Notes: generated by a model not told the origin, from the sequence alone. A DNA stretch of 64,000 nucleotides from an uncultured Gammaproteobacteria bacterium (GCA_964459725.1 CAYWNT010000004.1:57045-121044); one strand, 5' to 3'. Shown: positions 24,452 through 49,018, counted from the first letter of the stretch. A program made the numbers and translations.

Positions 24452-25984
24452 ATGTTTTTCAAAAATATGAGTGAAATAGCAAAGGCAATAAAACAAATTT
24501 GCGAAGAAAAAAAATTAAGCTACGATGCTGTTATTGAAACAATTGAATCTGCTATGTCAGCAGCTTATAGAAAGGATTTTGGACAAAAAAACCAGAATAT
24601 CCATGTTGTTTTTAATGAAGAGGATATTACAAAATCAAAAGTTTATGACATAAAAACAGTGGTTGAGGATTTGCCAGAAGAAGAAATGGAAGAAGAGGAA
24701 GAGGATGGTTCAGAAGCTAATGAAGAAGAAGTAAAAAAAGAAGAAAAGAAAGACAAGAAAGGAAAAGAAGAACCAAAAAAAGAGGATCCTTCGGCAGGCT
24801 CAGGACAAGAGAAAAAAGATAAGTCCGAAAAAGAAAAAGATGAGGAAGATTCTTCAGACGGCGAAGAGGAAGAAGAAGCAAAGAGGTTTAATCCAAAAAC
24901 TGAAATTCAACTTTCTGATGCAAAAGAGCTTAAAAAAACTGCAAAAGTAGGAGATGAAATCAAGACTAAGTTAGACGTACCGGAAGCTTATGGACGTATG
25001 GCTGCTCAAACTGCTAAGCAAGTTATTATTCAGCGTTTGCGAGAAGCTGAGAGAGAAATGGTATTTAATGATTTCAAGGACAAGGAAGGAGAAGTTGTTA
25101 GCGGAGTGGTACAGAGAAGAGAAAATAAATTTGTTTTAGTGGATCTTGGAAAATCTGTTGGAATTCTCGCTAATGATGAACAAATTCCAGGAGAGAAATA
25201 TGCTCCAGGTGACAGGGTGAAGGTTTACGTAAAAGAAGTAAATCTAAAAACCAAAGGACCTGAGATCGTTCTCTCCAGAACCTCAGAAGAGATTCTTAAA
25301 AAAGTTTTTCTAGTTGAAATTCCAGAAATTGCCAATGGAATTATTGAACTAAAAAATGTTTCGCGTGAAGCAGGTTCGAGATCAAAGGTAGCAGTCTGGA
25401 CTGATTCTGATAGCGTGGATCCTATTGGTTCATGTGTGGGACAGAAAGGAGCTAGAATCCAAACAATAATAAACGAACTAGGCGGTGAAAAAGTTGATAT
25501 AGTAGAATATGATGATGCACCTGAAAAATATATCACTAACGCCTTGTCTCCTGCCAAGATTATAGATATTGAAATTAACGAGGAAGAAAAAAAGGTTTTG
25601 GTAAAAGTAGCTACAGATCAGCTATCTTTAGCCATAGGAAAAGGTGGCCAGAATGTTCGTCTGGCAGCCAGACTTACAGGTTGGAAGATTGATATTGCAG
25701 AAATTGATGGAGAAGTAGCTCAAGAAAAAAAAGAAGAAGAAAAGGATGAGGATAATTCATCAGCTGATGAAGACACTTCGACAAGCTCAGTAGAAGCAAA
25801 AGAAGATGAAAAAGATGAGTCTGATAACAAAGAAGACCTTTCGGCCACTTCGACTGGCTCAGGACAGGCAAGCTCCCTCCAGGACGGCGGGCAGGCAGGA
25901 CAAGGGGATGAAGGGGTTGAAGAGTCAGAAGAAGAAGCTCCGACTGACAAAGAAGAAGCAAAAAAGAAAGAAGAGAAAAAATAA
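24452..25984 (+). CDS. nusA: transcription termination/antitermination factor NusA with E/K-rich insertions
   Basis: NTD, S1 (GEVVSGVVQR..) and KH1/KH2 (GSCVGQKGARIQ; AIGKGGQNVRLAARLTGWKIDI). A roughly 100-aa acidic/lysine-rich insert in the NTD and an acidic C-terminal tail. Confidence 0.9.
   Translation: MFFKNMSEIAKAIKQICEEKKLSYDAVIETIESAMSAAYRKDFGQKNQNIHVVFNEEDITKSKVYDIKTVVEDLPEEEMEEEEEDGSEANEEEVKKEEKKDKKGKEEPKKEDPSAGSGQEKKDKSEKEKDEEDSSDGEEEEEAKRFNPKTEIQLSDAKELKKTAKVGDEIKTKLDVPEAYGRMAAQTAKQVIIQRLREAEREMVFNDFKDKEGEVVSGVVQRRENKFVLVDLGKSVGILANDEQIPGEKYAPGDRVKVYVKEVNLKTKGPEIVLSRTSEEILKKVFLVEIPEIANGIIELKNVSREAGSRSKVAVWTDSDSVDPIGSCVGQKGARIQTIINELGGEKVDIVEYDDAPEKYITNALSPAKIIDIEINEEEKKVLVKVATDQLSLAIGKGGQNVRLAARLTGWKIDIAEIDGEVAQEKKEEEKDEDNSSADEDTSTSSVEAKEDEKDESDNKEDLSATSTGSGQASSLQDGGQAGQGDEGVEESEEEAPTDKEEAKKKEEKK
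24788..24809 (+). repeat. in-frame GC-rich element copy (NusA insert), CCTTCGGCAGGCTCAGGACAAG
   Basis: Translated PSAGSGQ; matches the copies at 25837, 35546(-), 42986 and 48482. Confidence 0.7.
25837..25905 (+). repeat. in-frame GC-rich element, long form (NusA C-terminal tail)
   Basis: CCTTTCGGCCACTTCGACTGGCTCAGGACAGGCAAGCTCCCTCCAGGACGGCGGGCAGGCAGGACAAGG, translated LSATSTGSGQASSLQDGGQAGQG. About 90 percent identical over 36 nt to the SMC copy. Confidence 0.75.
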
Positions 25985-25998
25985 TATTAGTTAAAAAT

Positions 25999-26928
25999 AT
26001 GGATAAAATATATATCATCGGACATAAATCACCAGATTTAGATTCAGTTGCAGCTGCAATCAGCTATGCAGATTTAAAAAATAAGTCTGAAGATACAAGT
26101 AGATATACCCCTGCCGTGTTAGGCGAAATTAATAAAGAAACTAAATATGTTTTGGAGAAATTTGGCTTTGAAGTACCGGAAATTTTGGAAAATGCTACTG
26201 GAAAAAATGTGGTTTTAGTAGATCATAATGAATTTTCTCAATCAGCGGATGGTATAGAAGAGGCAAAAATAGAAGAAGTATTGGATCATCATAAGGTTAA
26301 CTTTACTTTTTCTGACCCAATTGTTTTCAGAGCGTTTCCTGTAGGAGCAAGCTGCTCTATTGTTGCTGAAGAGTTTTCCAGGTTGTCTGTTCTATTAGAG
26401 GCTAATATGGCCGGACTAATGCTCTCTGCTATTTTGGTAGACACAGTTATTACCAAGTCTCCAACATGTACTGAAAGAGATATAAAAATAATTGAGGAAC
26501 TTTCTGAGAAGGCCGGTGTTTCAGACTGGAAAGAGTTCGGCATGGAGGTTTTTAAGATTAGAGCAAGTGTGAGCGAGCTAAGCGCAGAGGAAATACTAAT
26601 GAGCGATTTCAAAGATTTTGAATTTAGCCAAGGAAAGTTTGGCATAGGCCAGGTAGAAACTGTTGATTTGTCTGATTTTGATTCTGGAAAAGAAGAAATA
26701 CTTAAAATCATGGACCAGAAAAGACAAGATGAAGACTACCACAGTATACTTCTTTATCTTACTGATATTATAAACGTTGGTTCAGAAGTTTTGGTGGTAA
26801 CCAGTGATCAGGGGAAAATGGAGGAGGCCTTGGGGGTAAAACTAGATGGATCAAGGATATACCAGGATGGAATAATTTCTAGAAAAAAACAAGTAACTCC
26901 AACTATTGATAAATATTTTAATAAATAA
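25999..26928 (+). CDS. ppaC: family II (Mn-dependent) inorganic pyrophosphatase, DHH/DHHA2
   Basis: 309 aa; HKSPDLDS, VLVDHNE, LDHHK and C-terminal SRKKQVTP motifs. Confidence 0.8.
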   Translation: MDKIYIIGHKSPDLDSVAAAISYADLKNKSEDTSRYTPAVLGEINKETKYVLEKFGFEVPEILENATGKNVVLVDHNEFSQSADGIEEAKIEEVLDHHKVNFTFSDPIVFRAFPVGASCSIVAEEFSRLSVLLEANMAGLMLSAILVDTVITKSPTCTERDIKIIEELSEKAGVSDWKEFGMEVFKIRASVSELSAEEILMSDFKDFEFSQGKFGIGQVETVDLSDFDSGKEEILKIMDQKRQDEDYHSILLYLTDIINVGSEVLVVTSDQGKMEEALGVKLDGSRIYQDGIISRKKQVTPTIDKYFNK

Positions 26929-26953
26929 TTAATAAATAAATTTTAGAATAAAT

Positions 26954-28237
26954 ATGAAAGTAGAAAAAAAAGATTTAAAAAAATCAGAGATAGAGTTAAC
27001 AGTTGAAATTAGCTTGGAAGAATTCAAGCCATTTATTGAAAAAGGAGCTGAAAAAATTTCAAAAGAAGTAAAAATTGATGGTTTCCGACCAGGCAATGTT
27101 CCTCTTGATGTACTCAAGCAGAAAGTTGGAGAAATGGGAATACTGGAAGAGTCAGCTCGTTTGGCAATTAACGCTAAACTTGGTGAGATTTTGAAGGAGC
27201 ATATTGAAGGTGAGGCAATAGGGCAACCAAGAGTTGATATTACCAAACTGGCCCCGAATAATCCTCTAGAGTTCAAGGCAATTATTGCAATATTACCTAA
27301 ACTGGAATTATGTGATTATAAGAATGTAAAAACAGAAAAACAGAAAGTGAGCATAGATCCAAAAGAGCTAGAAAAAACCTTGAATGATATTAGGGAAATG
27401 AGAGTAAAAGAAGCCTTGGCAGATCGTGCGATCAAAGAAGGCGACAAAGTAATGGTAAGTATAAAAATGTTCCAGGACAATGTACCACTTGAAGGTGGAC
27501 AGGCCAAGGAAACACCAGTTATAATCGGAAAGGATTACATCATCCCAGGATTTGATAAAGAGTTGATTGGAAAGAAAAAAGGAGAAGAAAAAGAATTTAG
27601 TCTTCCATATCCAAAAGATCATCATATGAAAAATCTAGCCGGTAAAATGGTAGATTTTAAGGTTTCAATCGGGGATGTATTTGAGAGAGAGTTGCCAGAA
27701 CTAGATGATGAATTTGCCAAGAGTCTTGGTTTGAAAAAGTTTGAGGAACTAAAAGATAGCATGGAAAAGAATATTCTAGCTCAAAAGGAAAAAGAAGCTG
27801 ATAATCAAGTGGAGAAGAAAATGTTTGATACCATGATAGAGAAAACAAAGTTTGATGAAATTCCGCAAAGTATTATTGATCATGAAAATAACACCATGAT
27901 GAGAGAGTTAGAGCATAATGTTGTTTCACAAGGAATGCAATTTGAGGATTATTTAAAAAGTATAAATAAAACCAGAGATCAGCTAGTGATGGACCTACTA
28001 CCGCAGGCTATCAGCCGAGTTAAGGTTTCTCTTTTAATCAGAGAGGTTTCTATAAAGGAAAAAATTGAAGCTACAGAAGAAGACATTGCAAAGCACTTGA
28101 AGGATATGGAAAAGCAGTACGAAGGGCAAGCTGAAATGATCGAAAGACTAAAAGCGCCAGAGTACAAGACTTACGCAGCCAATGTGCTTACTAGTCAAAA
28201 AGTTGTTGATGCGCTTAAGAAGTGGAACATTAAATAA
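26954..28237 (+). CDS. tig: trigger factor
   Basis: 427 aa. N-terminal ribosome-binding region FRPGNVP. Central FKBP-type PPIase (IIPGFDKELIGKKKGEEKEF). Confidence 0.9.
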   Translation: MKVEKKDLKKSEIELTVEISLEEFKPFIEKGAEKISKEVKIDGFRPGNVPLDVLKQKVGEMGILEESARLAINAKLGEILKEHIEGEAIGQPRVDITKLAPNNPLEFKAIIAILPKLELCDYKNVKTEKQKVSIDPKELEKTLNDIREMRVKEALADRAIKEGDKVMVSIKMFQDNVPLEGGQAKETPVIIGKDYIIPGFDKELIGKKKGEEKEFSLPYPKDHHMKNLAGKMVDFKVSIGDVFERELPELDDEFAKSLGLKKFEELKDSMEKNILAQKEKEADNQVEKKMFDTMIEKTKFDEIPQSIIDHENNTMMRELEHNVVSQGMQFEDYLKSINKTRDQLVMDLLPQAISRVKVSLLIREVSIKEKIEATEEDIAKHLKDMEKQYEGQAEMIERLKAPEYKTYAANVLTSQKVVDALKKWNIK

Positions 28238-28330
28238 TAAATTAAAATAAAAAAACAAGAATAAATAAAAATGACAAATGTAATATAAAAAGTTTTTGTT
28301 ATTAAGTATTTTGTTAGGGAGGAGCGATTT

Positions 28331-28645
28331 ATGACGGGATTAGGATTAAGTGATGATAAGTCTGGCGGATTTAAGCACTTGCCTTGTTCAGAAGTGGGCC
28401 CAGGAAAAGAACTAAGAGAAGCAAGAAAAGCCTTGAAAGAGTCGAAGAGTCATCGAGTGGGTCACGGAGTCGAGCTTAGAGTGTCTCACAATTTTCTTGA
28501 GAAGTTAATGGAACAAGGCGGTGAGCAGATATCAACCCAGAAAGAACTTAAAGGCGAAGAAAAAACATATTGCTATAAAATAAAAAAAATTCTTCGTCAA
28601 AAGAAACAAACAATAATTCAGTATTTCATTACTACAATTGTTTAA
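28331..28645 (+). CDS. hypothetical protein
   Basis: Strong SD GGGAGGAG 7 nt upstream of the ATG; followed by a terminator. No family recognised. Confidence 0.4.
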   Translation: MTGLGLSDDKSGGFKHLPCSEVGPGKELREARKALKESKSHRVGHGVELRVSHNFLEKLMEQGGEQISTQKELKGEEKTYCYKIKKILRQKKQTIIQYFITTIV

Positions 28646-28671
28646 CAAACTTTTTCATTTTGTTTGTCGTC

Positions 28672-28704
28672 CCCCAGGCTTATTTTTAGCCTGGGGATTT
28701 TTTT
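28672..28704 (+). terminator. intrinsic terminator
   Basis: CCCCAGGCT TATTTTT AGCCTGGGG followed by ATTTTTTT. Confidence 0.8.
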
Positions 28705-28740
28705 ATTGTTTTTTGAGATTAAAAAAGCTAGAATATAAAC

Positions 28741-29244
28741 ATGCATTATATAATTGACGCTAACAATTTAGCTGGGCAGCTAGGACTTCTCGATGAAAAG
28801 GATTTTGATGAAAAATTGATCAGGATTGTTAAAGAGTATTTTGGAGATAAAAACCATGATATTAATTTGATTTTTGATGGGCTGGATAGATTTGGTGATA
28901 AATATAGAGATGGAAATATTACCGTTATTAGAGCTCCGCGATACGACAAGGATAATTCAGCTGATGATAAAATTGTTGAGATATTAGCGAAAACAAACAC
29001 CAAAGGAATTATTTTAGTAACTGATGATTTGGAGCTAATTGGGCGGGTAGAAAAACTAGAAGATGAGCGAAGAATACAAATACAGAAAATAAAAGCAAAT
29101 GATTTTGCTCAGAAAATAGAATTGAGATTGAAACATGCTTCGATAAACTCAGCACATGGAAAAAATTTCGATAATAATTTAAGCAAAAAAGAAATTGATA
29201 ATATAAATGAAGAATTGTTGGAAATTTGGAAAGAGAGGCAATAA
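28741..29244 (+). CDS. NYN/PIN-like (YacP-type) predicted RNA-binding nuclease
   Basis: 167 aa; IIDANNLAG N-terminus, LIFDG and VTDDLEL acidic motifs as in YacP/NYN domains. Confidence 0.55.
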   Translation: MHYIIDANNLAGQLGLLDEKDFDEKLIRIVKEYFGDKNHDINLIFDGLDRFGDKYRDGNITVIRAPRYDKDNSADDKIVEILAKTNTKGIILVTDDLELIGRVEKLEDERRIQIQKIKANDFAQKIELRLKHASINSAHGKNFDNNLSKKEIDNINEELLEIWKERQ

Positions 29245-29310
29245 AATGCTATAATATAGTTATATAATCCACTGCCAATTTTGCGAGCTAAAAAATTAGA
29301 AAAACAAGAC

Positions 29311-29460
29311 AAGTCCCCTCTAGGGAGGGGTAGGCAGGCAAAGTCTGGCGGGGTGGGTAAACGAACGCGGAGTAATGAAAATAATGGTTAAAACCCACCC
29401 CAAAATTATTTGTTTCATGCCCTGTGGGCGCAAAATAAGTATTCCCCTTCGAAGAGGGGG
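29311..29460 (+). other. GC-rich structured leader upstream of the hydrogenase genes
   Basis: AAGTC-CCCCTC-TAGG-GAGGGG-TAGGCAGGCAAAGTC element (29311-29345). 9-bp stem GGGGTGGGT/ACCCACCCC (29350-29401). 7-bp hairpin CCCCTTC GAA GAGGGGG (29444-29460) followed by CTTTATT. Confidence 0.5.
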
Positions 29461-29480
29461 CTTTATTCATAAGAAAAAAT

Positions 29481-29939
29481 ATGAGCAAGAAAAAAGTTGG
29501 AATATTTACATTTACTTGTGATGAAGGATGTTCTATTTATTTAATAGAAATATTTAACAAGAAGCTCCTGGGCTGGCTTGAGAAAATGGACTTGGAGTAT
29601 TTTTTATCAATGAAGGACAAGAGGGATTCAGATAGGTTTGATATCGCCCTTGTAGAGGGAGCGATTACAACGGAGAGGGACCTAGAAGAGATAAAAAAGG
29701 TAAGAGAGAGGTCAAAGATTCTGATCGGAATGGGGAATTGCGCTATTACAGGAAGTCCGACTTGTCAGAGAAATTTTTTTAACCAAGACCAGCTCGATGA
29801 AATAAAAAAAGACCTGGAGAAATTTAAATTTTTACCGAAATGCATAAGCATCAAAGAGGCAGTTGGCCTCGATGATGAAATAGTAGGCTGCCCGATAGAC
29901 GAAAAGAAATTCATCGAAGTATTTGAAAAATATCTTTAA
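29481..29939 (+). CDS. [NiFe]-hydrogenase small subunit, short group-3 type (proximal cluster only)
   Basis: 152 aa. VGIFTFTCDEGCS, DIALVEGAI, GMGNCAITGS and VGCP Cys motifs, as in HoxY/sulfhydrogenase-delta-like subunits. Confidence 0.75.
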   Translation: MSKKKVGIFTFTCDEGCSIYLIEIFNKKLLGWLEKMDLEYFLSMKDKRDSDRFDIALVEGAITTERDLEEIKKVRERSKILIGMGNCAITGSPTCQRNFFNQDQLDEIKKDLEKFKFLPKCISIKEAVGLDDEIVGCPIDEKKFIEVFEKYL

Positions 29940-30007
29940 AGAGTCAAAGTATATAAATAAATGTCACTTTAGACTTTATGGACTTTATAGACATTTGACT
30001 AAATTTT

Positions 30008-31351
30008 ATGCACACTTGTGATTTAGACATTTCAATAAATAGATTATCAAAGATTGAGGGACATGCTGACCTGGATGTGAAGATTCGAGATGGCAAAGTA
30101 GAGGATGTTCAGCTGAGAGTTATGGAGAATCAGCGTTTTTATACTCAGGCCGTAAAAGGCAAGCCAGCCCTGTCTGTGCCGCAGTTGGTTTCTAGAATTT
30201 GTGGAACTTGCTCTGTAGCGCATATGACAGGATGCATTGAGGCAGTAGAGAAGACTCTTGATATTACGCCAAGTGAACAAACCATGATAATGCGCAAGCT
30301 CATGATGTACTCTCTGATGATCAGGGATCATGCCCTGCATCTCTATTTCTTTGTGATGCCGGACATATTTGGAGTTGATTCAGCCCTGGAAATCGCTGAT
30401 TTATCTGAGGAGGAATTACGCGAGAAGGGAGCACCAGCTGGGCTAACTGGTAAAGACATAGTTCATGAAGCTTTGCACGTCAAAGAGGCAGGTAATAATC
30501 TATCAAATCTGATAGCCGGCCGATCAGTGCACGCTCCTTTTGAGGCTGTGGGCGGATTCACCAGGGAAGTAGATAATTCTAAGATTCCGGAAACAGTAGA
30601 AGAACTGAAAAAGATAAAACAATCAATCATAAACTTAGCAGAAGTTTTTTATAATTGTCATTGGGAACTAAAGAGAAAAACTAATTTTGTGGCACTTACC
30701 ACTCCAGACTTTTCATTTCTGGAAGGAGTGATCTGCTCTAGCACCGGAGCCTGCATCAAGGAGGAGAACTATTGGGATCATCTCCATAGTATAGTGCTTC
30801 CATATTCTCAGGCCAAGGGTTTTGAATTTGAGGGCCAGGAGTATATGGTTGGCTCTCTAGCTAGGTTAAATCTAAACAAAGATCATTTGCATAAAGATAC
30901 TAAGGAGTCAATGGCCAAATATTTGGAGATATTTCCTTCAGATAATATTTATCATAATAATTTAGCTCAAGCCATAGAGATAATGCACTCTATTGATCAT
31001 TCGGTTGAACTTTTGGAGAATTCAAAATTTAAAAAAGAAGAAATCGTAAAACCGCATAAACAATCAGGGGAGGGAGTCGGAGTTATTGAGGCGCCGCGAG
31101 GGACACTCTACTATTGGCTTGGTATAGAGGATGGAAAGGTGAGGTATGCTAACCTGGTTATCCCAACTGCTCAAAATTTGGTAAATATGAGAGAGGATGT
31201 TAGAGAGGCGGTAAAACTGGTATGTAATGATGGGGTAAAAGCGGAAGAGAAATGGGAGAAGAAAATTAAAAATGAGGTAGAGAAAATTATTAGAGCATAT
31301 GACCCATGTATGTCATGTGCTTCACATTTTTTAAAAGTTAATTGGACATAA
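30008..31351 (+). CDS. [NiFe]-hydrogenase large subunit (group 3-like)
   Basis: 447 aa. N-terminal RICGTCSVAH and C-terminal DPCMSCASH Ni-Fe ligand motifs, with a 7-residue tail after the His for protease cleavage. Confidence 0.9.
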   Translation: MHTCDLDISINRLSKIEGHADLDVKIRDGKVEDVQLRVMENQRFYTQAVKGKPALSVPQLVSRICGTCSVAHMTGCIEAVEKTLDITPSEQTMIMRKLMMYSLMIRDHALHLYFFVMPDIFGVDSALEIADLSEEELREKGAPAGLTGKDIVHEALHVKEAGNNLSNLIAGRSVHAPFEAVGGFTREVDNSKIPETVEELKKIKQSIINLAEVFYNCHWELKRKTNFVALTTPDFSFLEGVICSSTGACIKEENYWDHLHSIVLPYSQAKGFEFEGQEYMVGSLARLNLNKDHLHKDTKESMAKYLEIFPSDNIYHNNLAQAIEIMHSIDHSVELLENSKFKKEEIVKPHKQSGEGVGVIEAPRGTLYYWLGIEDGKVRYANLVIPTAQNLVNMREDVREAVKLVCNDGVKAEEKWEKKIKNEVEKIIRAYDPCMSCASHFLKVNWT

Positions 31352-31379
31352 ACAAAAAAGTAAAAAAAGGAGGTGAATC

Positions 31380-31574
31380 ATGGGATCCGAAAAGAAAAAA
31401 AGATTGTCGCCGCAGCTCGTATTTTTTGTTTCATTAATTATTTTTGTTGTTGGGCTTTGTTTTTCTGACACAGAAGTAGTTAAAGAAAGTATGATTTTGT
31501 CAGTTACCCCTTTTATTTTTGCATTAATCGCTGCACGGAGTTTGCCCAATGTCATTAACAAAGACAGATTTTAA
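31380..31574 (+). CDS. small two-TM protein downstream of the hydrogenase
   Basis: AAGGAGGTGAA SD 5 nt before the ATG; 64 aa with two hydrophobic helices. Confidence 0.5.
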   Translation: MGSEKKKRLSPQLVFFVSLIIFVVGLCFSDTEVVKESMILSVTPFIFALIAARSLPNVINKDRF

Positions 31575-31611
31575 AAAACAAGCATGGGGAAAAACAGGTT
31601 AGTTAATAAAA

Positions 31612-31998
31612 TTAGCCTGTTTTTTCTTTTTTGATTAAGGTAACTAGATCGTTTAAGGCCTGTTTTTTTTCTATTTTCATGGGAACACAAAAAATGACCA
31701 CCTCCTTGAGCTGCCCGATTTTTTCCAAGAGACGTAAGTTGAATCCCAGATCAAAATCATGCATAGAGTATTTTGGGTCTACTTGGATTTTGCTGATGTC
31801 AGTAAGAACTCGCACTTCTTCAATTCCTTCAGCTGTATCGATTATGATTAGCTTACCATTCTTGGGATGGAGGTTCTCATTCGGGTCCCTAACGCAGAAT
31901 TCAGTTTCCGGGAATTCTTTTTTCAGCTCGCTCTTTAGAAGAATAGGAGTATTATCAAAATCCAGCAATGGATTTCCAAATATGTATATTTTATTCAT
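31612..31998 (-). CDS. hydrogenase maturation endopeptidase (HycI/HoxW family)
   Basis: 128 aa; IFGNPLLDFDNTP, IIIDTAEG and SMHDF motifs in the order of the Asp/Asp/His metal site. Confidence 0.65.
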   Translation of the reverse strand: MNKIYIFGNPLLDFDNTPILLKSELKKEFPETEFCVRDPNENLHPKNGKLIIIDTAEGIEEVRVLTDISKIQVDPKYSMHDFDLGFNLRLLEKIGQLKEVVIFCVPMKIEKKQALNDLVTLIKKEKTG

Positions 31999-32036
31999 GA
32001 TAGTAAAAGGGGTGCTGCTTATTTAGCAGCACCCGG

Positions 32037-32294
32037 TTAGGCGGCGATTGGCTGAAATTTAACTCCAGGTAGATTCGCTTCTTTGTTTAAGGCAAGGATT
32101 ATTTTTTTTAATTCATCCTTGTCAGCAATTAGCTCGTTTACAATTTGAGCTCCTGCTTTTTCAAGATTTTTTTTCATTTGTACAAAACCTTCAGGGGTAT
32201 CGGAAAAGTCGATGTAGCACATATGGCCATATTCTTCTTTTACGATTATGGTTTTGTAATTTTTTCCAGGCTCAAGCTTCATTAACCCACACAC
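32037..32294 (-). CDS. hypothetical small protein
   Basis: AAGGAGG SD 6 nt before a GTG start; 85 aa; no family recognised. Confidence 0.45.
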   Translation of the reverse strand: MCGLMKLEPGKNYKTIIVKEEYGHMCYIDFSDTPEGFVQMKKNLEKAGAQIVNELIADKDELKKIILALNKEANLPGVKFQPIAA

Positions 32295-32421
32295 GATACA
32301 CCTCCTTTGTAAAATTATTGTTCGTTAATTATATTTTACTATACCTTCATTTTTTAGGCAAACTTATTCTTTCTTTTTTTTAAAAAATAATATAAAATCA
32401 TATTATATATTATTTGAAACT

Positions 32422-34220: not shown

Positions 34221-34223
34221 ATT

Positions 34224-35532: not shown

Positions 35533-35982
35533 TTATTCAGCCTTTCCTTGTCCTGAGCTCGCCGAAGGGTCTTCTGATTCTCCTCCTTCTTCTTTCTTTT
35601 CTTCACTAGCTGGTGCACTTTCTTCTTTGGTCTCGTCAGCTGCTGGAGCTTCTTCTCCTTCAGCAGCTGGACTTTCCTCTTTTTTCTCTTCCTCTTTCTT
35701 TTCTTCTTCTTTTGGCTTTCCTTTCTTTGAAGCTGTTACTTTTTCACCTTTTATAATATTTTTTTCTATTAATAGGTTGTTTACACTTGGTGACATTTTT
35801 GATCCATTTGCAATCCAATGTTCAATCCTGTCTTTTTCCACTGTTAATTCTTTGGTAAATGGGTTATATGACCCCAAAATTTCTAAAGCTCTACCTTGCG
35901 TGTCTTTAGCATTTTCAGAAATAACAAGTCGATACATCGGTTTTTTCTTTTTTCCGATTCTAGATAATCTAATGGTTAACAT
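35533..35982 (-). CDS. rpsP: 30S ribosomal protein S16 with about 65-aa E/K/A-rich C-terminal extension
   Basis: MLTIRLSRIGKKKKPMYRLVI..GSYNP..; a long low-complexity tail ending DPSASSGQGKAE. Confidence 0.9.
   Translation of the reverse strand: MLTIRLSRIGKKKKPMYRLVISENAKDTQGRALEILGSYNPFTKELTVEKDRIEHWIANGSKMSPSVNNLLIEKNIIKGEKVTASKKGKPKEEEKKEEEKKEESPAAEGEEAPAADETKEESAPASEEKKEEGGESEDPSASSGQGKAE
35546..35568 (-). repeat. in-frame GC-rich element copy (end of rpsP)
   Basis: Minus-strand reading CCTTCGGCGAGCTCAGGACAAGG, translated PSASSGQG. Confidence 0.7.
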
Positions 35983-38289: not shown

Positions 38290-38345
38290 GCCATGCCTGC
38301 ATACCATCCGGCACATAAACTGGTAGGCAGGATTCAATTTTATAT

Positions 38346-40275: not shown

Positions 40276-40458
40276 AATGTTTTATTTGAAACACGTAACG
40301 TATAACACGCAACGTAAGTTATCTTATTTATTTTTAGATTATCTTTATTATATTCTATTTGTCGTTTATTGTATAGACACGATTTAAAGCTACAAAAACA
40401 AAAAACCAACTGTTGTAGATCTGTGCGGTCGTCTAAATCTCCAACAGTTGGTTTTTTT

Positions 40459-40500
40459 AGAAAAAGAAAAGCCACCTATCTCGATTGTGAGATAAGTGGC
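40459..40500 (-). terminator. intrinsic terminator of the 40508 membrane-protein gene
   Basis: GCCACTTATCTC ACAATC GAGATAGGTGGC on the minus strand, then a T-rich run. A second 12-bp hairpin (AACCAACTGTTG..CAACAGTTGGTT) at 40404-40453. Confidence 0.65.
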
Positions 40501-40507
40501 TGTTTTG

Positions 40508-41365: not shown

Positions 41366-41506
41366 TATATTCCTCCTTTTTGGTTTTTCGGTTTATGTTT
41401 CTTTTTAACATATAATTTAAAAAAAGTCAAGTTGCAAGAACTTATAGTACTTTTAACATGTTAAAGAAAATTTGCTTTTGTTGGGCATTTTCTGTAAATT
41501 AAAGAC

Positions 41507-43195
41507 ATGAACAAGCAAGAAACAAAAAAAGCTATTTTGGAAATTTTGAAAAGTAGGATAAGGAATCGGAAAGATTTGATGATGGCCAAGAGGAGAATGG
41601 CGGTTAAATATTCTATTCCTATTTTTTCCAATGCTGAAATATTTAAGGAGTATCGAGAGCTCGTGAAAACGGGAAAAGTTAAAAGATCTCCGGTATTAGA
41701 TCAGGTGTTAAGGAAGCGAGCTGTTCGCACCTTGTCAGGCATTGCTCCTGTGGCAGTTCTTACTAGGCATTTTCCATGTCCTGGGAAATGTGCTTTTTGT
41801 CCTACGGAAAAAGATGTGCCTCAGAGCTACCTGTCTAATGAGCCGGCAGTGATGAGAGCTATTCGGTGTAACTATGATCCCTTCATTCAAGTTCAGGATA
41901 GACTTCGAGCCTTGGTAGCAAACGGGCATGAACCTACCAAGATGGAGGTAATCGTTATCGGAGGTACTTGGTCGGCCCATCCTCGAAAATATAAATATTG
42001 GTATATATTAAATTGCTTTGCGGCTGCAAATCAGTTTAGTCGAAAGTCTATAAAGTCACCCGCCTATCGGACGGGCAGGAAAGTCACCCGCCTATCGGAC
42101 GGGCAGGAAAGTCGAGGGTATAGCATAAATTTAAAGATTGATGAGTTGAAGAAGTTATTATTAGAGGAGCAGAAGAAAAATGAAAAAGCAAAGTACAATA
42201 TCATTGGACTTACTCTGGAAACTCGACCGGATTATATTAATGAAAAAGAATTGATTCAAATGAGAGAGTTGGGCTGCACTAGAGTTGAGATTGGGGTGCA
42301 GGCGATTGATGATAAAATTTTGAAGCTGAATAAGCGCGGACATGGAGTAGAAAAAATCGCAGATAGCACAGAGATGCTAAGAAGTTTTGGATTTAAGATT
42401 ACTTATCATATTATGCCTGGCCTGCCTGGGGCTACTCCAGCGTTAGACGCAAAGATGTTTAAGCAATTATTTTGCGATCCTAGATTTCAGCCAGATCAGA
42501 TAAAATTTTATCCCACAGTAGTTACTAAGGGCAGCTTGATGTACAGGTGGTGGAAGCAGGGAAAGTATAAACCGTATACAGACAAGCAATTGCAAAAGCT
42601 AATTATAGATTGTAAGACAGTTGTACCTTCATACGTGAGAATAATTCGTCTAATCAGAGATATCCCAGGTGAGTCCATTGAGGCTGGCAACAAGATTACA
42701 AATCTCCGACAGGTTATGCAGGATAGGGGGGTGAAATGTAATTGTATTAGATGCAGAGAGTCACGTGAGTCACAGGTTGCAAATCATAAATTGCAGATTA
42801 TTAATTATAAGGTGACTGGCGGAGAAGAGTTTTTTATAAGTTTTGAAAATAAGAAAAAGAATATTTTGTACGCTTTTTGTAGATTATTCGTTCCAGATAG
42901 CAAAACTCAAGCACTTCACCAGCTAACAAGTGGAGGTTCTATTGTTCGTGAACTTCATGTTTATGGTGAGTTAGTATCGATTGGTACTTCGACAGGCTCA
43001 GCACAAGCGAAAAAAGAAAAAAAAGTTCAACATATTGGATTAGGTAAACTTTTAATAAAAAAAGCTGAAGAAATATCACTTGATCATGGATTAGGGAAAA
43101 TAAGTATAATTTCCGGAGTTGGAGTGAGGGGGTATTATAGAAAATTAGGATATAGACTAAATAATACCTATATGGTTAAAAATATAAAGGAATAG
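41507..43195 (+). CDS. Elp3-like radical-SAM / GNAT acetyltransferase fusion (tRNA U34 modification family)
   Basis: 562 aa. Radical-SAM cluster CPGKCAFCP. ELP3-type TLETRPDYI, GCTRVEIGVQ and IMPGLPG motifs. C-terminal GNAT (QHIGLGKLLIKKAEEIS). Confidence 0.85.
   Translation: MNKQETKKAILEILKSRIRNRKDLMMAKRRMAVKYSIPIFSNAEIFKEYRELVKTGKVKRSPVLDQVLRKRAVRTLSGIAPVAVLTRHFPCPGKCAFCPTEKDVPQSYLSNEPAVMRAIRCNYDPFIQVQDRLRALVANGHEPTKMEVIVIGGTWSAHPRKYKYWYILNCFAAANQFSRKSIKSPAYRTGRKVTRLSDGQESRGYSINLKIDELKKLLLEEQKKNEKAKYNIIGLTLETRPDYINEKELIQMRELGCTRVEIGVQAIDDKILKLNKRGHGVEKIADSTEMLRSFGFKITYHIMPGLPGATPALDAKMFKQLFCDPRFQPDQIKFYPTVVTKGSLMYRWWKQGKYKPYTDKQLQKLIIDCKTVVPSYVRIIRLIRDIPGESIEAGNKITNLRQVMQDRGVKCNCIRCRESRESQVANHKLQIINYKVTGGEEFFISFENKKKNILYAFCRLFVPDSKTQALHQLTSGGSIVRELHVYGELVSIGTSTGSAQAKKEKKVQHIGLGKLLIKKAEEISLDHGLGKISIISGVGVRGYYRKLGYRLNNTYMVKNIKE
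42038..42115 (+). repeat. AAAGTC-word / hairpin element with 28-nt tandem duplication, inside the Elp3-like CDS
   Basis: GTCGAAAGTC-TATAAAGTC, then two exact 28-nt units AAGTCACCCGCCTATCGGACGGGCAGGA (42053-42080 and 42081-42108), then AAGTC. Translated KSPAYRTGR / KVTRLSDGQE in different frames. Confidence 0.85.
42986..43008 (+). repeat. in-frame GC-rich element copy (Elp3-like, between the SAM and GNAT parts)
   Basis: ACTTCGACAGGCTCAGCACAAGC, translated TSTGSAQA. Confidence 0.6.
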
Positions 43196-43386
43196 GCTAA
43201 TGTTAGTAAATTTTTAGGATAAAAATTAAGAAATTATAAACATTTAATTAATTATCCACATTGACTTAAATTGGAAATTTTGCTATACTAAATACATAAG
43301 GTTGAGATAGCATTTATTTTTAAACAAAAAGTTTAAAATTCTTCAGAAAAACCTTCAAAAATAAAACAAAAACAAAAATAAAAAAA

Positions 43387-43683
43387 ATGCACAATATTCA
43401 TGTTATTAAAACAGGCAATTTTGGTTTTGACCACGTTGGCTGGAAATATAACAATTTAATAAAAAAGAAAGCAATGGAGCAGGAGTTCAGTTTTACTGGA
43501 CTCATTATTAGCTTGTCCATTGCTTTTTTTATTGTTTTATCTACTGCGTTTTTTTTAAGCTTACTGACTAAATCAGTGACTCAAGCGCAAGCTGAGAGTG
43601 TTATTTATGAAAGCAATATTTACAAGCTAGAAAGTAATGAATTTTTACATACAAAATTAACTGTTTTTAGTAAACAGGCCTAA
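43387..43683 (+). CDS. small membrane protein (hypothetical)
   Basis: 98-aa ORF. The likely true start is the internal Met (MEQEFSFTG..) before the single TM helix. A perfect DnaA box TTATCCACA lies upstream at 43252-43260. Confidence 0.35.
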   Translation: MHNIHVIKTGNFGFDHVGWKYNNLIKKKAMEQEFSFTGLIISLSIAFFIVLSTAFFLSLLTKSVTQAQAESVIYESNIYKLESNEFLHTKLTVFSKQA

Positions 43684-44042
43684 GGGACTGTTGTTGGTTT
43701 CTATTTTAGTGATTTTTTATTCTTAAAATGGCACTCAACAACAGTCCCGAAAATGTTCTTTATAAAAAATGCAGCTATGCTTAATATAGGTATAACAAAA
43801 AAGAAAAAATTATCAATATAAGCATAGCTCTCTTTCTTACTTTGTTCCTTCTGGAGCAGAGTGAGCATGGGGATAAAAATCAGAAACACCGCCGGTCTCT
43901 ATTTTAGGCGGTGTTTTTGTTTATCAAAAAATAAAACTTTTAAATAATTGACAAAATTTAATTTTTATGTTAGTATTTTTGCAGAATGAACTTTGAAAAT
44001 TTATTGCAACTTAATCTAATATATAAGCTGGAGGGTTAATAA

Positions 44043-45062
44043 ATGGACAGTGCTCTTGTGGTTAAAGATTATTCTTTGTCTCAATGTGATAGCGATGATA
44101 CAAAAATACTGTTTCGAAAATTTAGAGAAGTTTTTAGTGCAGAAAAACAAGTATATCGAGCTGTTTTTTGGATTGAGGAAAAGTTTGGTAAATTTATTCT
44201 TCGTAGTGTGCCAGACATAAAAAGAAAGAAAAAGTCAGAAGATATAATAGTGGGAAAAGTGTTAGATGTTTTTTCGGCTAAGATACTAATTGGTAATTTT
44301 TTTGCAGGACGAAATATGACTCAAATAAAATGGGAATTGTATTCCGATTTTAATTTAAGTGATAAAATTGAAGAAGGTAGATTTGATTACAAAGATTTAT
44401 TGTCTGGTTTAGAGTTGGTAGATCAGGATTATTATGCTCAAAGCTCGATTTACCCAAAAGGTGACTGGGATTTTGATGGTATTATTTTAACTCACCAATG
44501 TCCTAAATGCTATAGGGTTTTCGATAAAGAATTTATAATTTTAAATCCATTCAAATTTTGTGATTCTTGTGGAGAAAAGATTCCTGTTGGCAAGGGAAAG
44601 GAAATTATTAGCAGAATGTTGAAAAAAATTAATTATTTTCCGTCAAAAATAATTCTTACAAACTTTGAGGAAATAAAAAAAAGAAGTGATAATAGGATTC
44701 AGCTCTATATTGATCCAATGTGCAATTCGGTTATCTTGTGGATTTTAACATCTCCTGTTAGTAGTCGAAATCCGCAAATATTTGAAAAATTTGTGATACG
44801 TGAAAGCGGGTATAATTATCTAGATAAGGCATTTAAATCAAGTATTTTTTGTCTTATGTCAAGTAATTGTTTAAGTAGGGATATGAATCAATATTTAGAA
44901 GAAATTGATGTGGATGGTTCGATTATGTTTATCAGGTTGGCAAAAAAATATGGCAATATGTTGAAGAACAAAGATTCGGATGAGTTATTATCTAATGCGG
45001 AAGCTGAAAAATTATTAAAATTTTTTCCTCATTTTATAAACGAATTAATAATTAAAGCATAA
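44043..45062 (+). CDS. uncharacterised zinc-ribbon protein, paralogue A
   Basis: GGAGGG SD. Shares a core with the next ORF: LIGN...G..MT.I(K/R)WELY.D......I..GR.D..DLLS......P(K/R)GDWDFD, then CPKC..x17..CDSC. Confidence 0.6.
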   Translation: MDSALVVKDYSLSQCDSDDTKILFRKFREVFSAEKQVYRAVFWIEEKFGKFILRSVPDIKRKKKSEDIIVGKVLDVFSAKILIGNFFAGRNMTQIKWELYSDFNLSDKIEEGRFDYKDLLSGLELVDQDYYAQSSIYPKGDWDFDGIILTHQCPKCYRVFDKEFIILNPFKFCDSCGEKIPVGKGKEIISRMLKKINYFPSKIILTNFEEIKKRSDNRIQLYIDPMCNSVILWILTSPVSSRNPQIFEKFVIRESGYNYLDKAFKSSIFCLMSSNCLSRDMNQYLEEIDVDGSIMFIRLAKKYGNMLKNKDSDELLSNAEAEKLLKFFPHFINELIIKA

Positions 45063-45076
45063 AGAGGGGGCAAAGA

Positions 45077-46069
45077 ATGAGTAATTTAATTTTAGGTAAA
45101 GGCAATCTACCAGCAATTCCTGTTCAAATGTTTCCTGTTGTGGGAAATGGTATATCTGAGAAAGATTTAATTTCGCTTTCCAATTTACCCTTTGAACAAA
45201 CTTTAAACCAATTTAGAGACGAACTTTGCGCTGAAAGAAGTCCATTTCGTCGATGTTATTATATCGATGAAAAAAAAGATCGGGTTTCAGTGTATTACGT
45301 TTTGAATTTAAAATCAGGCAAGAAGGTGGCTCTTGGAAGCACGATAAAAGACCTGGATGCAATTAAAGTTTTGATTGGTAATTCAATGTCTGGTGCTTAT
45401 ATGACCTCAATTCGTTGGGAGTTATATGAAGATCCTGATTGTGAAGACTTGATAGATATGGGCAGAATTGATCAATGGGATTTATTGTCAGACATTTCAG
45501 CCGATAAATTATCAAGGCTGTCCGCTGATAGAATTATTGCTCCTAGGGGAGATTGGGATTTTGATCGAATGATGTTTCGTAGGCGATGTCAGGTTTGCGG
45601 AAATGAAACATCAGTTAATAGTTGGGTTTTTAATATTGACAGTGTAGTTTGCTCCGAGTGTAGAAATCGTCCATTTTTAGCCCCACATATTTCGGATCAA
45701 CTTGAGTTTATTCAAGAAAATATGCAAGGAGGCGAAGTTTCTGACAAAAACCTTTTTTATTTATTTGATTGGATTTCTAGTGTTAAAGGAAACTTTAATG
45801 AGATTGGCGACAAAGAAAATGTCTATCTCATTGAAAATATTTTATCAAAAACTATGATTGGTGAAGCGATTGGACATAAACCAGGCCGGGTTCGAAGGTT
45901 GGTTGAAGCAAATTCCAATTTTGGCTTCGGCATGTATCAAAATTGTTGCGCAAAAGCAATTGCTGCTCTGCGTGGGGATGAGCCTTTTAGCGAGGAGCAT
46001 CAGATAGCTCTTGATTTTGTACTTAAAACAACCAAAATGATAAAATCAAAAGCTTTATCAACGAATTAG
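45077..46069 (+). CDS. uncharacterised zinc-ribbon protein, paralogue B
   Basis: GAGGGGG SD. Same core as paralogue A, with CQVC..x17..CSEC; the C-terminal third is divergent. Confidence 0.6.
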   Translation: MSNLILGKGNLPAIPVQMFPVVGNGISEKDLISLSNLPFEQTLNQFRDELCAERSPFRRCYYIDEKKDRVSVYYVLNLKSGKKVALGSTIKDLDAIKVLIGNSMSGAYMTSIRWELYEDPDCEDLIDMGRIDQWDLLSDISADKLSRLSADRIIAPRGDWDFDRMMFRRRCQVCGNETSVNSWVFNIDSVVCSECRNRPFLAPHISDQLEFIQENMQGGEVSDKNLFYLFDWISSVKGNFNEIGDKENVYLIENILSKTMIGEAIGHKPGRVRRLVEANSNFGFGMYQNCCAKAIAALRGDEPFSEEHQIALDFVLKTTKMIKSKALSTN

Positions 46070-46102
46070 AAAATGTGTAAAGCAAGATAGAACAAAAAAT
46101 AA

Positions 46103-46131
46103 AGCCGTGAACTTTCGTTTACGGCTTTTTA
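46103..46131 (+). terminator. intrinsic terminator
   Basis: AGCCGTGAAC TTTC GTTTACGGCT followed by TTTTT. Confidence 0.75.
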
Positions 46132-46312
46132 AATTATAAAAATTTTATTATTTTATATAAATATAGTATAATATAGATAATAACATCGGTTAAATTTTAG
46201 CCGATTTATTTAAGAGAAATTACGAACTGTTATTAAATACAGAAGTAAAGAATTACAAGAATAAAATAATAGAAATGTTCTTGTAATTTTGTGTTTTTAT
46301 ATTTTTTATTGA

Positions 46313-49018
46313 ATGTATATAGAAAAATTAGAAATTCAAGGATTCAAGTCTTTTGCAGATAAGAATGTTCTATCTTTCCCGGGATCATTAAGTGATGCTG
46401 AGCAGGGGCTGACAGCTATAGTTGGACCGAATGGATCAGGTAAATCAAATGTAGCCGATGCGATTAGATGGGTGTTGGGAGAACAGAGTCTCAAGACTAT
46501 TAGGGGGAAAAAGGCGGATGATGTAATATTTTCTGGAACAGAAAAGAGAAAGAAACTGGGCATGGCTGAGGTGGCTTTGTATTTGAATAATGCTGATAAG
46601 CAAGCACCGATTGATTACACCGAACTGGTGATCAAGAGAAGGGTTTATCGAGATGGTAATAGTGAATATTTAATAAATAATAGTAGAGTCAGACTCATAG
46701 ATGTTCAAATGCTTTTGGCCAAGGCTAATGTAGGACAAAAAACATACAGTGTGGTCGGGCAAGGTACAGTAGATAATTTCTTGAACAGCTCATTGGCTGA
46801 CAGGAAAGAGTTTTTTGATGAAGCAACTGGAGTAAAGCAGTATCAGATCAAGAGAGACTCGTCTCTTAACAAGCTTCGTTTGAGCTATGAGAATCTATCT
46901 CAGGCGCAAATGCTTCTCTCGGAAATTGAACCTAGACTAAATAGTCTTACTAGGCAGGTAAAGAAGCTTAGAAAGAGAGGAGAGCTGGAAAAAGAACTAA
47001 AGGAACATCAATTAAAATATTATTATTCTATTTGGCATGAGAATAATAATAAATTTAGAGATTATAATAATAAATTTTTGGTACTTGAAAAGGAAAAACA
47101 TGAAAAGGATAAGAAACTTAGTTTTTTCAATAAAGAGTTGGAGAAGTATGAGGTAAGCAAGGACCAAGAAAGTGAATACGATGTTTTGGAAAGAGATCTT
47201 AGAAAATATCAAGATGAAAAAGAAAACCAAGAAAGACAATTAGCCAGGATCGATGCTCATATCGAGGTGCAGTTGGAGTCAGTAGGTAAATTTGACTTGT
47301 CATTTTTTATTTTAAAAAAGGAAGAACTAACCAAAGACATTAAAAAAATCGATGATGAGCTAGCCAGACTAAAGGAAAGCATCAAGGATGATAAAGAAGA
47401 GGAGATAGATCTGAAAAATAAGAACGAAAAATTAGTTAACGACTTAGAGAAACTAAATAATAAATTATTTGAAACTAAGAAGGAGACAAGTGATAGTGTA
47501 GAACCTGAAATGGAAAAAAAGATAAGAGAGGTAATTGAGAAAATAAAATTGGCTGAAGGAGAAGAGGAGATGCAAAAAATAAAAGAGATAATATCAGCAA
47601 TAAAAACTGAATTAGAAAAATTATTTTTAGAAGAAAAAGAAGAAATACAAGAGAGTGAGAATTGGCAGGGAGTTCACGAGGAAATTAAAAAGCTATCAAA
47701 AGAAAAAGAAGAAATTTCAGGTAGGATAAATGATAATATTTTGCGAATCTCTGCTCGCTCAGAGAGAATAAATCTTTTAGATGAAAAAAATGTTTCTTTA
47801 AGAAAGGAACTGGAAGATATTGAATCAAAAATAAAACAAAATTCAGATGTGATAGACGTAGAAGAGATAACTTCTAAACGAGATAACATGAAAGGAAAAA
47901 TTGCTGAGACTGATGAGATTGTGGCTGACCTGAAGAACAAAATGAGTAGACTAAACAAAGAGGAGGAAAAAAAGAGATCTCATCTTCTAGGACTACAAAA
48001 AAATATTCAGGAACTTCAGATGGAGATTAATAATTTAGTAAATGAGCTAAATGATCTGAAGGTACATGCAGCCAGACATGAAACAAGGCTAGAGGATATT
48101 GAGGTGGAAATTAGAGATGAGCTGGGAGGAATGAGTGATATTAAGGGAGGAGAGCTGGATGTTTCAGGAGTTGATCTGGGAGAAGTCAAAGAAAGCATAG
48201 TAAAAATAAAAAGACAATTAGAGCTCATTGGTGGAATTGATCCAGAGGTTGAGAAAGAATATGGCGAAACTAAAGAGCGTTTTGATTATCTTTCTGGGCA
48301 GGTTACTGATCTGACATCAGCCATTGATTCTTTGGAGAACATTATAAAAGAACTAGATATTACTATTAGAAAAAAGTTTGACAAAGAGTTCAAGGTGATT
48401 GCAGGCAAATTTCAAGAATATTTTAAAATATTATTTGGTGGCGGAACAGCTAAAATTGAAAAGGTTGTAGAGGAGGAAGATCCTTCGACAGGCTCCCTCC
48501 AAGAAGGCGGGCAGGCAGGACAAGGAGAGGAAGAAATGAAGGAAAGTCAGTCAGGGGAAGGTGAAGAAAATTTAAAAGACCCTAAAAAGAAAAACGAAAC
48601 TCATAACATAGTAGATGTAAAAAAGATCAAATTTTTACAAAAGCACAACGCTACCGGTTTAGCAGGAGTTGAGATTTATGCCTGCCCCCCTGGTAAAAAG
48701 ATCACCTCAATAAATGTTTTGTCTGGAGGAGAAAAGGCTCTAACTGCTATAGCCTTGATTTGCGCAATTATCAGAGCTAATCCTGCTCCTTTTGTTGTTT
48801 TGGATGAGGTTGATGCAGCCCTTGATGAAGCAAACTCAGAAAGGTTGGCAAAAATCCTAGAGGATTTATCTCACAGAACTCAATTTATTGTTATAACTCA
48901 TAATAGAGCCTCAATGAAAAAGGCAAGCGTATTATACGGCGTAACCATGGGAGATGATGGAGTCTCAAAACTTTTAAGCGTCAAAATGGGAGAAGCTGTA
49001 GATAAGGCAAGATACTAA
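46313..49018 (+). CDS. smc: SMC-family chromosome segregation ATPase, short form without recognisable hinge
   Basis: 901 aa. N-head FKSF..GPNGSGKSNVADAIRWVLGEQS, QGTVDNF, EATGVKQYQIKR. C-head LSGGEKALTAIAL and VLDEVDAALDEAN. The roughly 520 residues between the heads are continuous E/K-rich coiled coil. Confidence 0.85.
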   Translation: MYIEKLEIQGFKSFADKNVLSFPGSLSDAEQGLTAIVGPNGSGKSNVADAIRWVLGEQSLKTIRGKKADDVIFSGTEKRKKLGMAEVALYLNNADKQAPIDYTELVIKRRVYRDGNSEYLINNSRVRLIDVQMLLAKANVGQKTYSVVGQGTVDNFLNSSLADRKEFFDEATGVKQYQIKRDSSLNKLRLSYENLSQAQMLLSEIEPRLNSLTRQVKKLRKRGELEKELKEHQLKYYYSIWHENNNKFRDYNNKFLVLEKEKHEKDKKLSFFNKELEKYEVSKDQESEYDVLERDLRKYQDEKENQERQLARIDAHIEVQLESVGKFDLSFFILKKEELTKDIKKIDDELARLKESIKDDKEEEIDLKNKNEKLVNDLEKLNNKLFETKKETSDSVEPEMEKKIREVIEKIKLAEGEEEMQKIKEIISAIKTELEKLFLEEKEEIQESENWQGVHEEIKKLSKEKEEISGRINDNILRISARSERINLLDEKNVSLRKELEDIESKIKQNSDVIDVEEITSKRDNMKGKIAETDEIVADLKNKMSRLNKEEEKKRSHLLGLQKNIQELQMEINNLVNELNDLKVHAARHETRLEDIEVEIRDELGGMSDIKGGELDVSGVDLGEVKESIVKIKRQLELIGGIDPEVEKEYGETKERFDYLSGQVTDLTSAIDSLENIIKELDITIRKKFDKEFKVIAGKFQEYFKILFGGGTAKIEKVVEEEDPSTGSLQEGGQAGQGEEEMKESQSGEGEENLKDPKKKNETHNIVDVKKIKFLQKHNATGLAGVEIYACPPGKKITSINVLSGGEKALTAIALICAIIRANPAPFVVLDEVDAALDEANSERLAKILEDLSHRTQFIVITHNRASMKKASVLYGVTMGDDGVSKLLSVKMGEAVDKARY
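48482..48525 (+). repeat. in-frame GC-rich element, long form (SMC C-terminal head insert)
   Basis: CCTTCGACAGGCTCCCTCCAAGAAGGCGGGCAGGCAGGACAAGG, translated PSTGSLQEGGQAGQG. Confidence 0.75.

Follow-up and report, generated by a model that had tools for sequence, protein, structure and literature searches.

The stretch of DNA analyzed here, a window of 64 kb (64,000 nucleotides (nt); positions 57045-121044 of contig CAYWNT010000004.1, assembly GCA_964459725.1), carries short GC-rich elements within four housekeeping genes. Pfam scans assigned the host proteins to NusA, ribosomal protein S16 (rpsP), an Elp3-type radical-SAM/acetyltransferase enzyme and SMC, the same hosts that had been named in a previous reading made from the DNA alone (the sequence-only reading). 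The SMC open reading frame (ORF) is complete (901 aa), the best non-self match of the protein is 60% identical, and the genome is that of a Parcubacteria-like member of the Patescibacteria. Judging from sequence comparisons, the sites in the window are probably copies of very small non-autonomous insertion modules, namely a 24-nt module (M1, consensus CCTTCGRCNRGCTCAGGRCARGNN) and a 21-nt module (M2, CCTCCAARAAGGCGGGCAGGC), with a third (M3) elsewhere in the Elp3-like gene. Counts given for this genome cover the 64-kb window.

Five copies of an in-frame element had been listed by the sequence-only reading, and all five are real. A looser scan and a profile drawn from 245 outside copies both added a decayed copy that had been overlooked, which makes exactly six M1 copies, none intergenic. 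The first copy (CCTTCGGCAGGCTCAGGACAAGAG; 24788-24811, plus strand; nhmmer E = 7.6e-7) encodes PSAGSGQE in an E/K-rich insertion that splits the N-terminal domain of NusA. The decayed copy (copy 6, ACTTCGACAAGCTCAGTAGAAGCA; 25775-25798, plus strand; E = 0.0023) encodes TSTSSVEA in the C-terminal tail of NusA, where it is followed by a 69-nt nested composite (25838-25906, plus strand). A copy on the minus strand (CCTTCGGCGAGCTCAGGACAAGGA; 35545-35568; E = 7.3e-6) adds PSASSGQG to the C-terminal tail of S16, four codons short of the rpsP stop. The Elp3-like protein has a copy encoding TSTGSAQA (ACTTCGACAGGCTCAGCACAAGCG; 42986-43009, plus strand) in its acetyltransferase domain, where it replaces the two variable codons of a G-xx-KK-VQH loop, and the SMC head carries a 45-nt composite (48482-48526, plus strand; peptide PSTGSLQEGGQAGQG) in a hypervariable acidic loop. 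The earlier description of the elements as GC islands in E/K-rich linkers fits the first NusA copy, but not the Elp3 copy, which occupies a short loop of the acetyltransferase domain. Per-residue confidence (pLDDT) of the AlphaFold2 model fell below 50 at both module sites of the Elp3-like protein (residues 491-505 for M1 and 181-201 for M3), each flanked by confidently modeled elements.

Translation bore out the shared orientation, the shared phase, the peptides quoted and the host ORFs. All M1 copies in the window (6/6) are sense and use the phase xCT TCG RCN RGC TCN GGA CAA, reading P/T-S-T/A-G/S-S-G-Q. That they lie in frame is true of every copy but trivial, because 24 and 21 nt are multiples of three and insertion causes no frame shift. 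TCG is the rarest Ser codon in the window (7.5%), yet it is used in 6/6 M1 copies, so the similarity is at the nucleotide level, which supports the proposal of a single nucleotide element rather than linkers common by descent. With up to 3 mismatches allowed, the 22-nt core was found four times in the window, 100 dinucleotide shuffles giving an expectation of 0.00, and the longer form twice against 0 expected. No Rfam family was found at gathering thresholds at the M1 sites of the window, and relaxing to E values up to 10 returned noise only.

The two “long forms” are nested composites of M1 and M2, rather than lengthened M1. M2 nests in M1 after GCTC (alignment A1). In SMC, it (CCTCCAAGAAGGCGGGCAGGC, 21 nt; 48496-48516, plus strand) divides M1 into 48482-48495 and 48517-48526. 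In the NusA tail, the outer M1 is present in three pieces (25838-25846, 25871-25875 and 25897-25906), with an inner M1 (ACTTCGACTGGCTCAGGACAGGCA; 25847-25870, plus strand; E = 3.7e-6) lodged after CTTTCGGCC of the outer copy and M2 (CCTCCAGGACGGCGGGCAGGC, 21 nt; 25876-25896, plus strand) after its GCTC, and the composite sums exactly (24 + 24 + 21 = 69 nt). The resemblance claimed for the long forms (about 36 nt at roughly 90% identity) was real and amounts to 34 nt with 2 mismatches (94%), but it reflects M2 nested in M1 and not a longer variant. The arrangement of M1 within M1 recurs in the Elp3 loop of an orthologue (P0322), and the M1::M2 composite recurs in three unrelated contigs (L387, L412 and L369). 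The long-form pattern had 0 matches in viral contigs, and M2 was instead recovered by a metagenome scan, in which solitary M2 forms a GC island in low-GC contigs; high-GC matches were set aside, as they look like ordinary GC-rich, probably coding DNA. M3 (CCCGCCTATCGGACGGGCAGG), likewise 21 nt and GC-rich, is present twice within 42059-42114, inside the hypervariable region of the Elp3-like gene, at 42059-42079 and 42087-42107 (plus strand), alternating with the heptamer AAAGTCN and read in different phases (SPAYRTGR and TRLSDGQE). The same 21-mer also stands alone as a GC island in two viral contigs of low GC content that are unrelated (L440 and L441). As a separate observation, the Rfam Flavo-1 RNA motif (RF01705) is abutted at its 3′ end by M2 (CCCTCCAAAAAGGCGGGCAGGC) in the low-GC metagenome contigs L405 (4684-4810) and L417 (685-796); the region upstream of M2 in L393, L385 and L430 is similar to that in L405 and L417, but no Flavo-1 match was reported there.

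Across 122 distinct copies, the sequence logo of M1 is conserved only from positions -2 to +21 (YCCTTCGRCARGCTCAGGRCARGC), with random flanks, and its edges are sharp at all sites, in contigs of 32-73% GC. A pyrimidine directly precedes M1 at 97-100% of sites in the well-populated context classes, and at 82% in a class of 11 sites read in the FDK phase. M1 starts with YCCTTCG, has no palindrome and no GTAG or CGTC head, and lacks terminal inverted repeats. A CCCTCC/GGCGGG hairpin had been proposed for the long forms; it is not supported, as these fold no better than shuffled sequences (z = -0.49 and +0.06) and the single 24-mers do worse than theirs. Positions -2 and +16 co-vary, with C-G in 128 copies, T-A in 41, T-G in 5 and C-A in 66; the resulting 4-bp stem is unstable, and position -2 may belong to the target. 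Individual copies depart from the consensus by point substitutions, which are consistent with decay after insertion.

Three kinds of comparison fix the M1 unit at exactly 24 nt, with a positional ambiguity of at most 1 nt and no target duplication in the pairs of empty and filled sites. In a ParB-like phage gene, the empty site GGC GAC/TTT corresponds to the filled site GGC GAC/CCTTCGACCGGCTCAGGGCAAGGC/TTC. A gene resembling g15 of gene transfer agents (GTAs) is found as empty GAC GCC/CTG and as filled GAC GCC/CCTTCGACAGGCTCAGGACAGGGC/CTG; the two versions (L290 and L292) share 95.2% identity across 1183 nt, interrupted by one clean 24-nt gap where M1 lies and by a separate 12-nt indel elsewhere. 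Finally, an array of GAGTGAC heptamers (L129) is broken by exactly 24 nt, which are M1. The GTA site of another lineage (L359, L362 and L367) holds a decayed M1. Insertion of M1 is precise, duplication-free, recurrent and partly recent, and the modules nest. Among the ParB-like phage genes, L247 and L255 (65% nucleotide identity) carry M1 at the same codon boundary, and L250, which is closer to L255 (85% identical), is without it; this common boundary would imply either site-specific re-insertion or recombinational transfer.

Orthologues of all four host genes differ at these exact sites, where a check for presence or absence had been suggested, and the element is patchy. M1-like peptides occur at varying positions in ~6/120 SMC homologues from the Candidate Phyla Radiation (CPR), the closest relatives being without them, and in 120/120 the loop of the head domain forms an acidic, hypervariable linker. 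In NusA, ~10/120 orthologues carry M1 at different places in the linker or tail, and in the S16 tail it is found in 1-2 of 150 cluster representatives. In Elp3, M1 sits in exactly the G-xx-KK-VQH loop in ~10/120 orthologues, with carriers scattered over a neighbor-joining tree and sister sequences empty. G-xx-KK-VQH is the ancestral loop, and at the nucleotide level the 24-mer (a 48-mer in P0322) takes the place of two or three of its codons. Codons of M1 in other CPR genomes are the same as in the window. A conserved linker would have been indicated by distant orthologues that encode an identical peptide at one and the same position with diverged nucleotides; no such case was found, which favors insertion. 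Further varied peptides (ITNYELRI..., VILRPKAEES..., ILHPEASGFRMT) fill query residues ~170-215 of the CPR Elp3 alignment; they look derived from repeats or heptamer arrays and suggest that several further module families may be present. Similarly, SSFAEASEDK, SSSAKATEDK and PSFAEATEG peptides are patchy in the same hypervariable linkers of SMC and NusA orthologues (P0016, P0021, P0079, P0080, P0107, P0176 and P0209), and this peptide family probably marks another GC-rich module.

A degenerate M1 pattern matched at least 120 stretches in a viral collection and at least 120 in a collection of species-representative genomes. Among the genome matches listed, M1 occurs in about 17 phylum-level groups, at least 15 phyla among them, including Patescibacteria, Bacteroidota, Acidobacteriota, Chloroflexota, Pseudomonadota, Myxococcota, Planctomycetota, Verrucomicrobiota, Cyanobacteriota, Nitrospirota, Nitrospinota and Actinomycetota; it is present in phage contigs as well, and the element is not peculiar to this kind of genome. 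Two isolates (Gelidibacter mesophilus and Occallatibacter savannae) are among the matches, as are long-read chromosomes, and M1-bearing contigs range in GC content from 0.32 to 0.73. Complete plasmids and chromids of Sphingobium and relatives have up to 12 M1-matching places per megabase. None of 5,426 complete E. coli genomes contains M1, and cultured phages gave only a 20-nt match, in one group of Pseudomonas phages. In the two cases examined, from Sphingobium and Novosphingobium replicons (L246, 1440-1535; L245, 1495-1610), M1-like arms ending in ...GGGCGAACGG make up long pairs in inverted orientation (z = -5.6). The Sphingobium pair sits between convergent genes, as a bidirectional terminator or a REPIN would. 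Of 250 M1 sites, 12 (5%) have an inverted partner no more than 200 nt away. No gene family recurs beside M1 in 120 genome loci, which points to a non-autonomous element; all-against-all BLAST of the ORFs from 240 loci returned only families common to related phage contigs, and Pfam scans of 20 window proteins gave no transposase, reverse transcriptase or recombinase.

Elsewhere, 109 confident coding sites comprise 59 sense copies in the P-S-T phase, 30 sense copies in the other two phases and 20 antisense copies, such that 82% of coding M1 copies are sense. An in-frame M1 within an 800-aa ORF of Gelidibacter is one of the antisense examples, and intergenic copies also exist. The trinucleotide GAY was considered as an insertion target that might explain the phase, being in frame in 61% of sense occurrences, and was rejected because G at -4 is unenriched at non-coding copies; this leaves the pyrimidine at -2 alone as a general feature.

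Several observations weigh against reading the sites as insertion modules. The P-S-T bias is stronger in CPR linkers, where all of the ~20/20 copies use this phase, than overall (59/109). Among coding copies in the P-S-T phase, G is found at -4 in 75% and A at -3 in 49% (GAY, an Asp codon, in up to about half), against only 21% with G at -4 among non-coding copies, so that the Asp codon is restricted to coding copies and some peptide-level selection or function at M1 sites could be involved. Not every event is a clean insertion: several in CPR genomes and one in a phage replaced a patch, with the loss of a few host codons, and these also fit templated repair. No enzyme, template or master copy was found, and mobility is read from presence and absence. 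Furthermore, the totals for the two collections are lower bounds, and the count for this metagenome-assembled genome applies to 64 kb of it.

The phase bias and the upstream Asp are what would be expected if D-P-S-T-G-S-G-Q were a short linear motif, selected convergently in linkers as a peptide. Against this, codon choice is fixed down to the rarest Ser codon, the same nucleotides are used from 32 to 73% GC, intergenic and other-phase copies are common, and the hosts are cytoplasmic and unrelated; such a motif is therefore a very improbable explanation. Rather, the bias probably reflects selection for a harmless, flexible and uncharged peptide after a loop-friendly residue, and the Asp enrichment upstream does not suggest a phase-specific mechanism. 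The patch replacements, in which 6-18 host nt were exchanged (P0034 versus P0102, L256 versus L258, and the Elp3 loops of P0260, P0322 and the window), together with the lack of a transposase found near M1, lend some weight to spread of the 24-mer by templated patch repair or short-patch illegitimate recombination (gene conversion), with the repeat being the commonest donor and not a transposable unit. This is unlikely, though a more serious contender than the other alternatives, given that the same 24-nt limits recur in hundreds of unrelated contexts, that insertions into the phage ParB-like gene, the GTA gene and the heptamer array were clean, that junction microhomology never exceeds 1 nt and that nesting positions are fixed.

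A functional DNA or RNA signal (a binding site, processing site or terminator half-site) that was recruited repeatedly and kept by selection could account for the excess of sense copies and for the strong inverted pairs of Sphingobium and Novosphingobium, the annotated one of which lies between convergent genes. The consensus of the Rfam small RNA (sRNA) family RF02901 (AaHKsRNA41, Aggregatibacter sRNA 41) also includes the M1 core in the form of an inverted repeat (CUGAGCUUGCCGAAG ... UUCGGCAAGCUCAG), but the match reached 24 bits against a gathering score of 97, and on the Sphingobium inverted pair only. Such a signal is quite improbable in light of copies decaying in place (window copies 4 and 6, the L359 group and P0260), the unstructured solitary 24-mers and their scarcity of inverted partners, the location of sites in linkers of unrelated proteins and the absence of M1 from the E. 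coli genomes. No point was found in support of an ancient linker kept by descent or an artefact of assembly or contamination, and we regard either as barely credible: the closest orthologues are without M1, it is found in genomes of isolates, in complete plasmids and in long-read chromosomes, decayed copies exist, and reading frames are kept.

Insertion modules of this size have a counterpart in the small dispersed repeats (SDRs) of cyanobacteria, of which SDR1-8 of Nostocaceae, reportedly set out by Elhai et al. in 2008 (Genome Res 18:1484), are said to lie within tandem heptamer repeats, to insert into one another and to have been proposed to spread by RNA- or single-stranded DNA (ssDNA)-templated copy-and-paste in trans. 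M1 (24 nt) and M2 and M3 (21 nt) share with SDRs a size within 21-27 nt, the lack of coding capacity and precise boundaries. Nesting is also shared, both of M1 in M1 (NusA of the window and P0322) and of M2 in M1 (SMC and NusA of the window, L387, L412 and L369). Embedding in heptamer arrays is occasional (M1 in L129 and L076; M2 in L436, L396 and L389; M3 between AAAGTCN), and under a strict criterion 2/245 M1 sites lie in a tandem heptamer array. Unlike SDRs, M1 spans about 17 phylum-level groups and phage contigs and often lies in protein-coding genes. A common secondary structure backed by compensatory changes is a feature of SDRs; for M1, folding turned up no structure shared by the copies, and positions -2 and +16 co-vary as given above. 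PMC4390886 describes SDRs as 21-27-nt modules with precise insertion, SDR5 entering between nucleotides 3 and 4 of HIP1; PMC5861425 reports them only in Nostocaceae, PMC2884548 states that they “might be mobile”, and these three papers and PMC3116915 cite Elhai et al. On its distribution, M1 does not belong to the SDR1-8 families.

Rickettsia palindromic elements (RPEs), reportedly described by Ogata et al. in 2000 and suggested as an analogy by the sequence-only reading, are selfish palindromic repeats of ~100-150 bp that are known only from Rickettsia, in frame in housekeeping genes. The analogy holds for insertion tolerated in frame in coding genes, at surface positions, with patchy occurrence among orthologues and decay in place. 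It fails for structure and size, M1 being unpalindromic, 24 nt long and present in many bacterial phyla. Repetitive extragenic palindromic (REP) sequences and REPINs are short, dispersed, GC-rich repeats mobilized by REP-associated tyrosine transposases (RAYTs; PMC3116915, PMC3733652), and the strongly folding inverted pairs of M1-like arms in Sphingobium and Novosphingobium resemble them. In contrast to REPs, which are imperfect palindromes usually arranged as extragenic inverted doublets, solitary M1 has no palindrome or GTAG/CGTC head and is often intragenic (6/6 window copies lie in genes), doublets were seen only in the Sphingomonadaceae examples, REP families are lineage-specific, and no RAYT was seen near M1 in 120 genome loci, nor any transposase among 20 proteins of the 64-kb window. 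MITEs (miniature inverted-repeat transposable elements) such as Correia/NEMIS have terminal inverted repeats, target-site duplications and lengths of ~100 bp or more (PMC10969869). M1 is similarly non-autonomous and sometimes in frame within genes, but has neither the repeats, the duplications nor the size. On our best reading, made by analogy, SDRs would be the closest functional match and RPEs would resemble M1 in effect, with M1 belonging to neither. Literature searches by peptide, nucleotide string and keyword returned no description of M1, and the module seems not to have been described before.

If the sites are indeed insertion modules, copies of M1 and M2 would persist in genes only where seven or eight added residues do no harm, i.e., in disordered acidic linkers, tails and surface loops. 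Survivors would then be mostly sense and in the phase encoding P-S-T-G-S-G-Q-G/A, a flexible peptide without charge that typically follows an Asp, Gly or Ala codon, and in an AT-rich Patescibacteria genome they would appear as the GC islands in NusA, S16, Elp3 and SMC. Most likely, the modules give their host proteins no specific function. By analogy with cyanobacterial SDRs, new copies may be made in trans by a candidate RNA- or ssDNA-templated copy-and-paste process, with phages as plausible horizontal suppliers. That the consensus stays constant from phylum to phylum even as single copies decay implies that the source is constrained or that an enzyme recognizes the module. Extending this, M1-M3 might tentatively be seen as a class of 21-24-nt copy-and-paste modules across phyla, partly carried by phages, with dedicated and possibly RNA- or ssDNA-templated machinery that continually seeds frame-neutral flexible-linker codons into proteins, core housekeeping proteins of Patescibacteria among them; we hold this broader proposal with clearly less confidence than the insertion of the window copies. 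Ribosomal RNA was rejected as a universal template or pairing partner, as M1 in either sense scored no better than shuffled motifs against the E. coli rrn operon. Partial resemblances to Tn3-type inverted repeats, the tRNA T-arm, the 5′ end of tmRNA and FtsK-orienting polar sequences (KOPS) were unsupported and dropped.

Other features of the window include a 1007-aa tandem double T2SSE (PilB-like) ATPase immediately downstream of SMC (49126-52149, plus strand), which is not a second half of SMC. On the minus strand, a giant 2641-aa ORF (15514-23439) with SpvB, FG-GAP, RHS-repeat and Ig-like domains encodes a surface or toxin-like protein, its neighbors being otherwise housekeeping genes. An intergenic GC island (29315-29370) contains the perfect palindrome CCCCTCTAGGGAGGGG followed by GGCAGGCA and matches no Rfam family at the gathering threshold.

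If this interpretation is correct, mobile DNA would extend down to 21-24 nt in many phyla, beyond one cyanobacterial family; on the broader proposal, no smaller mobile elements would be known outside Nostocaceae. In metagenome annotation, “hypothetical” proteins that are otherwise unrelated share peptides such as PSTSSGQA, LRQAQDK and FDKLRTG, a recurrence that the modules would account for. Cultivable Sphingobium strains with several copies per replicon offer a testable system for the insertion machinery. The modules would also supply essential and phage proteins with loops and linkers time and again, on the broader proposal a general, so far unrecognized route by which these evolve, and in CPR bacteria part of the odd insertions in housekeeping proteins would be imported repeat DNA and not lineage-specific adaptation.

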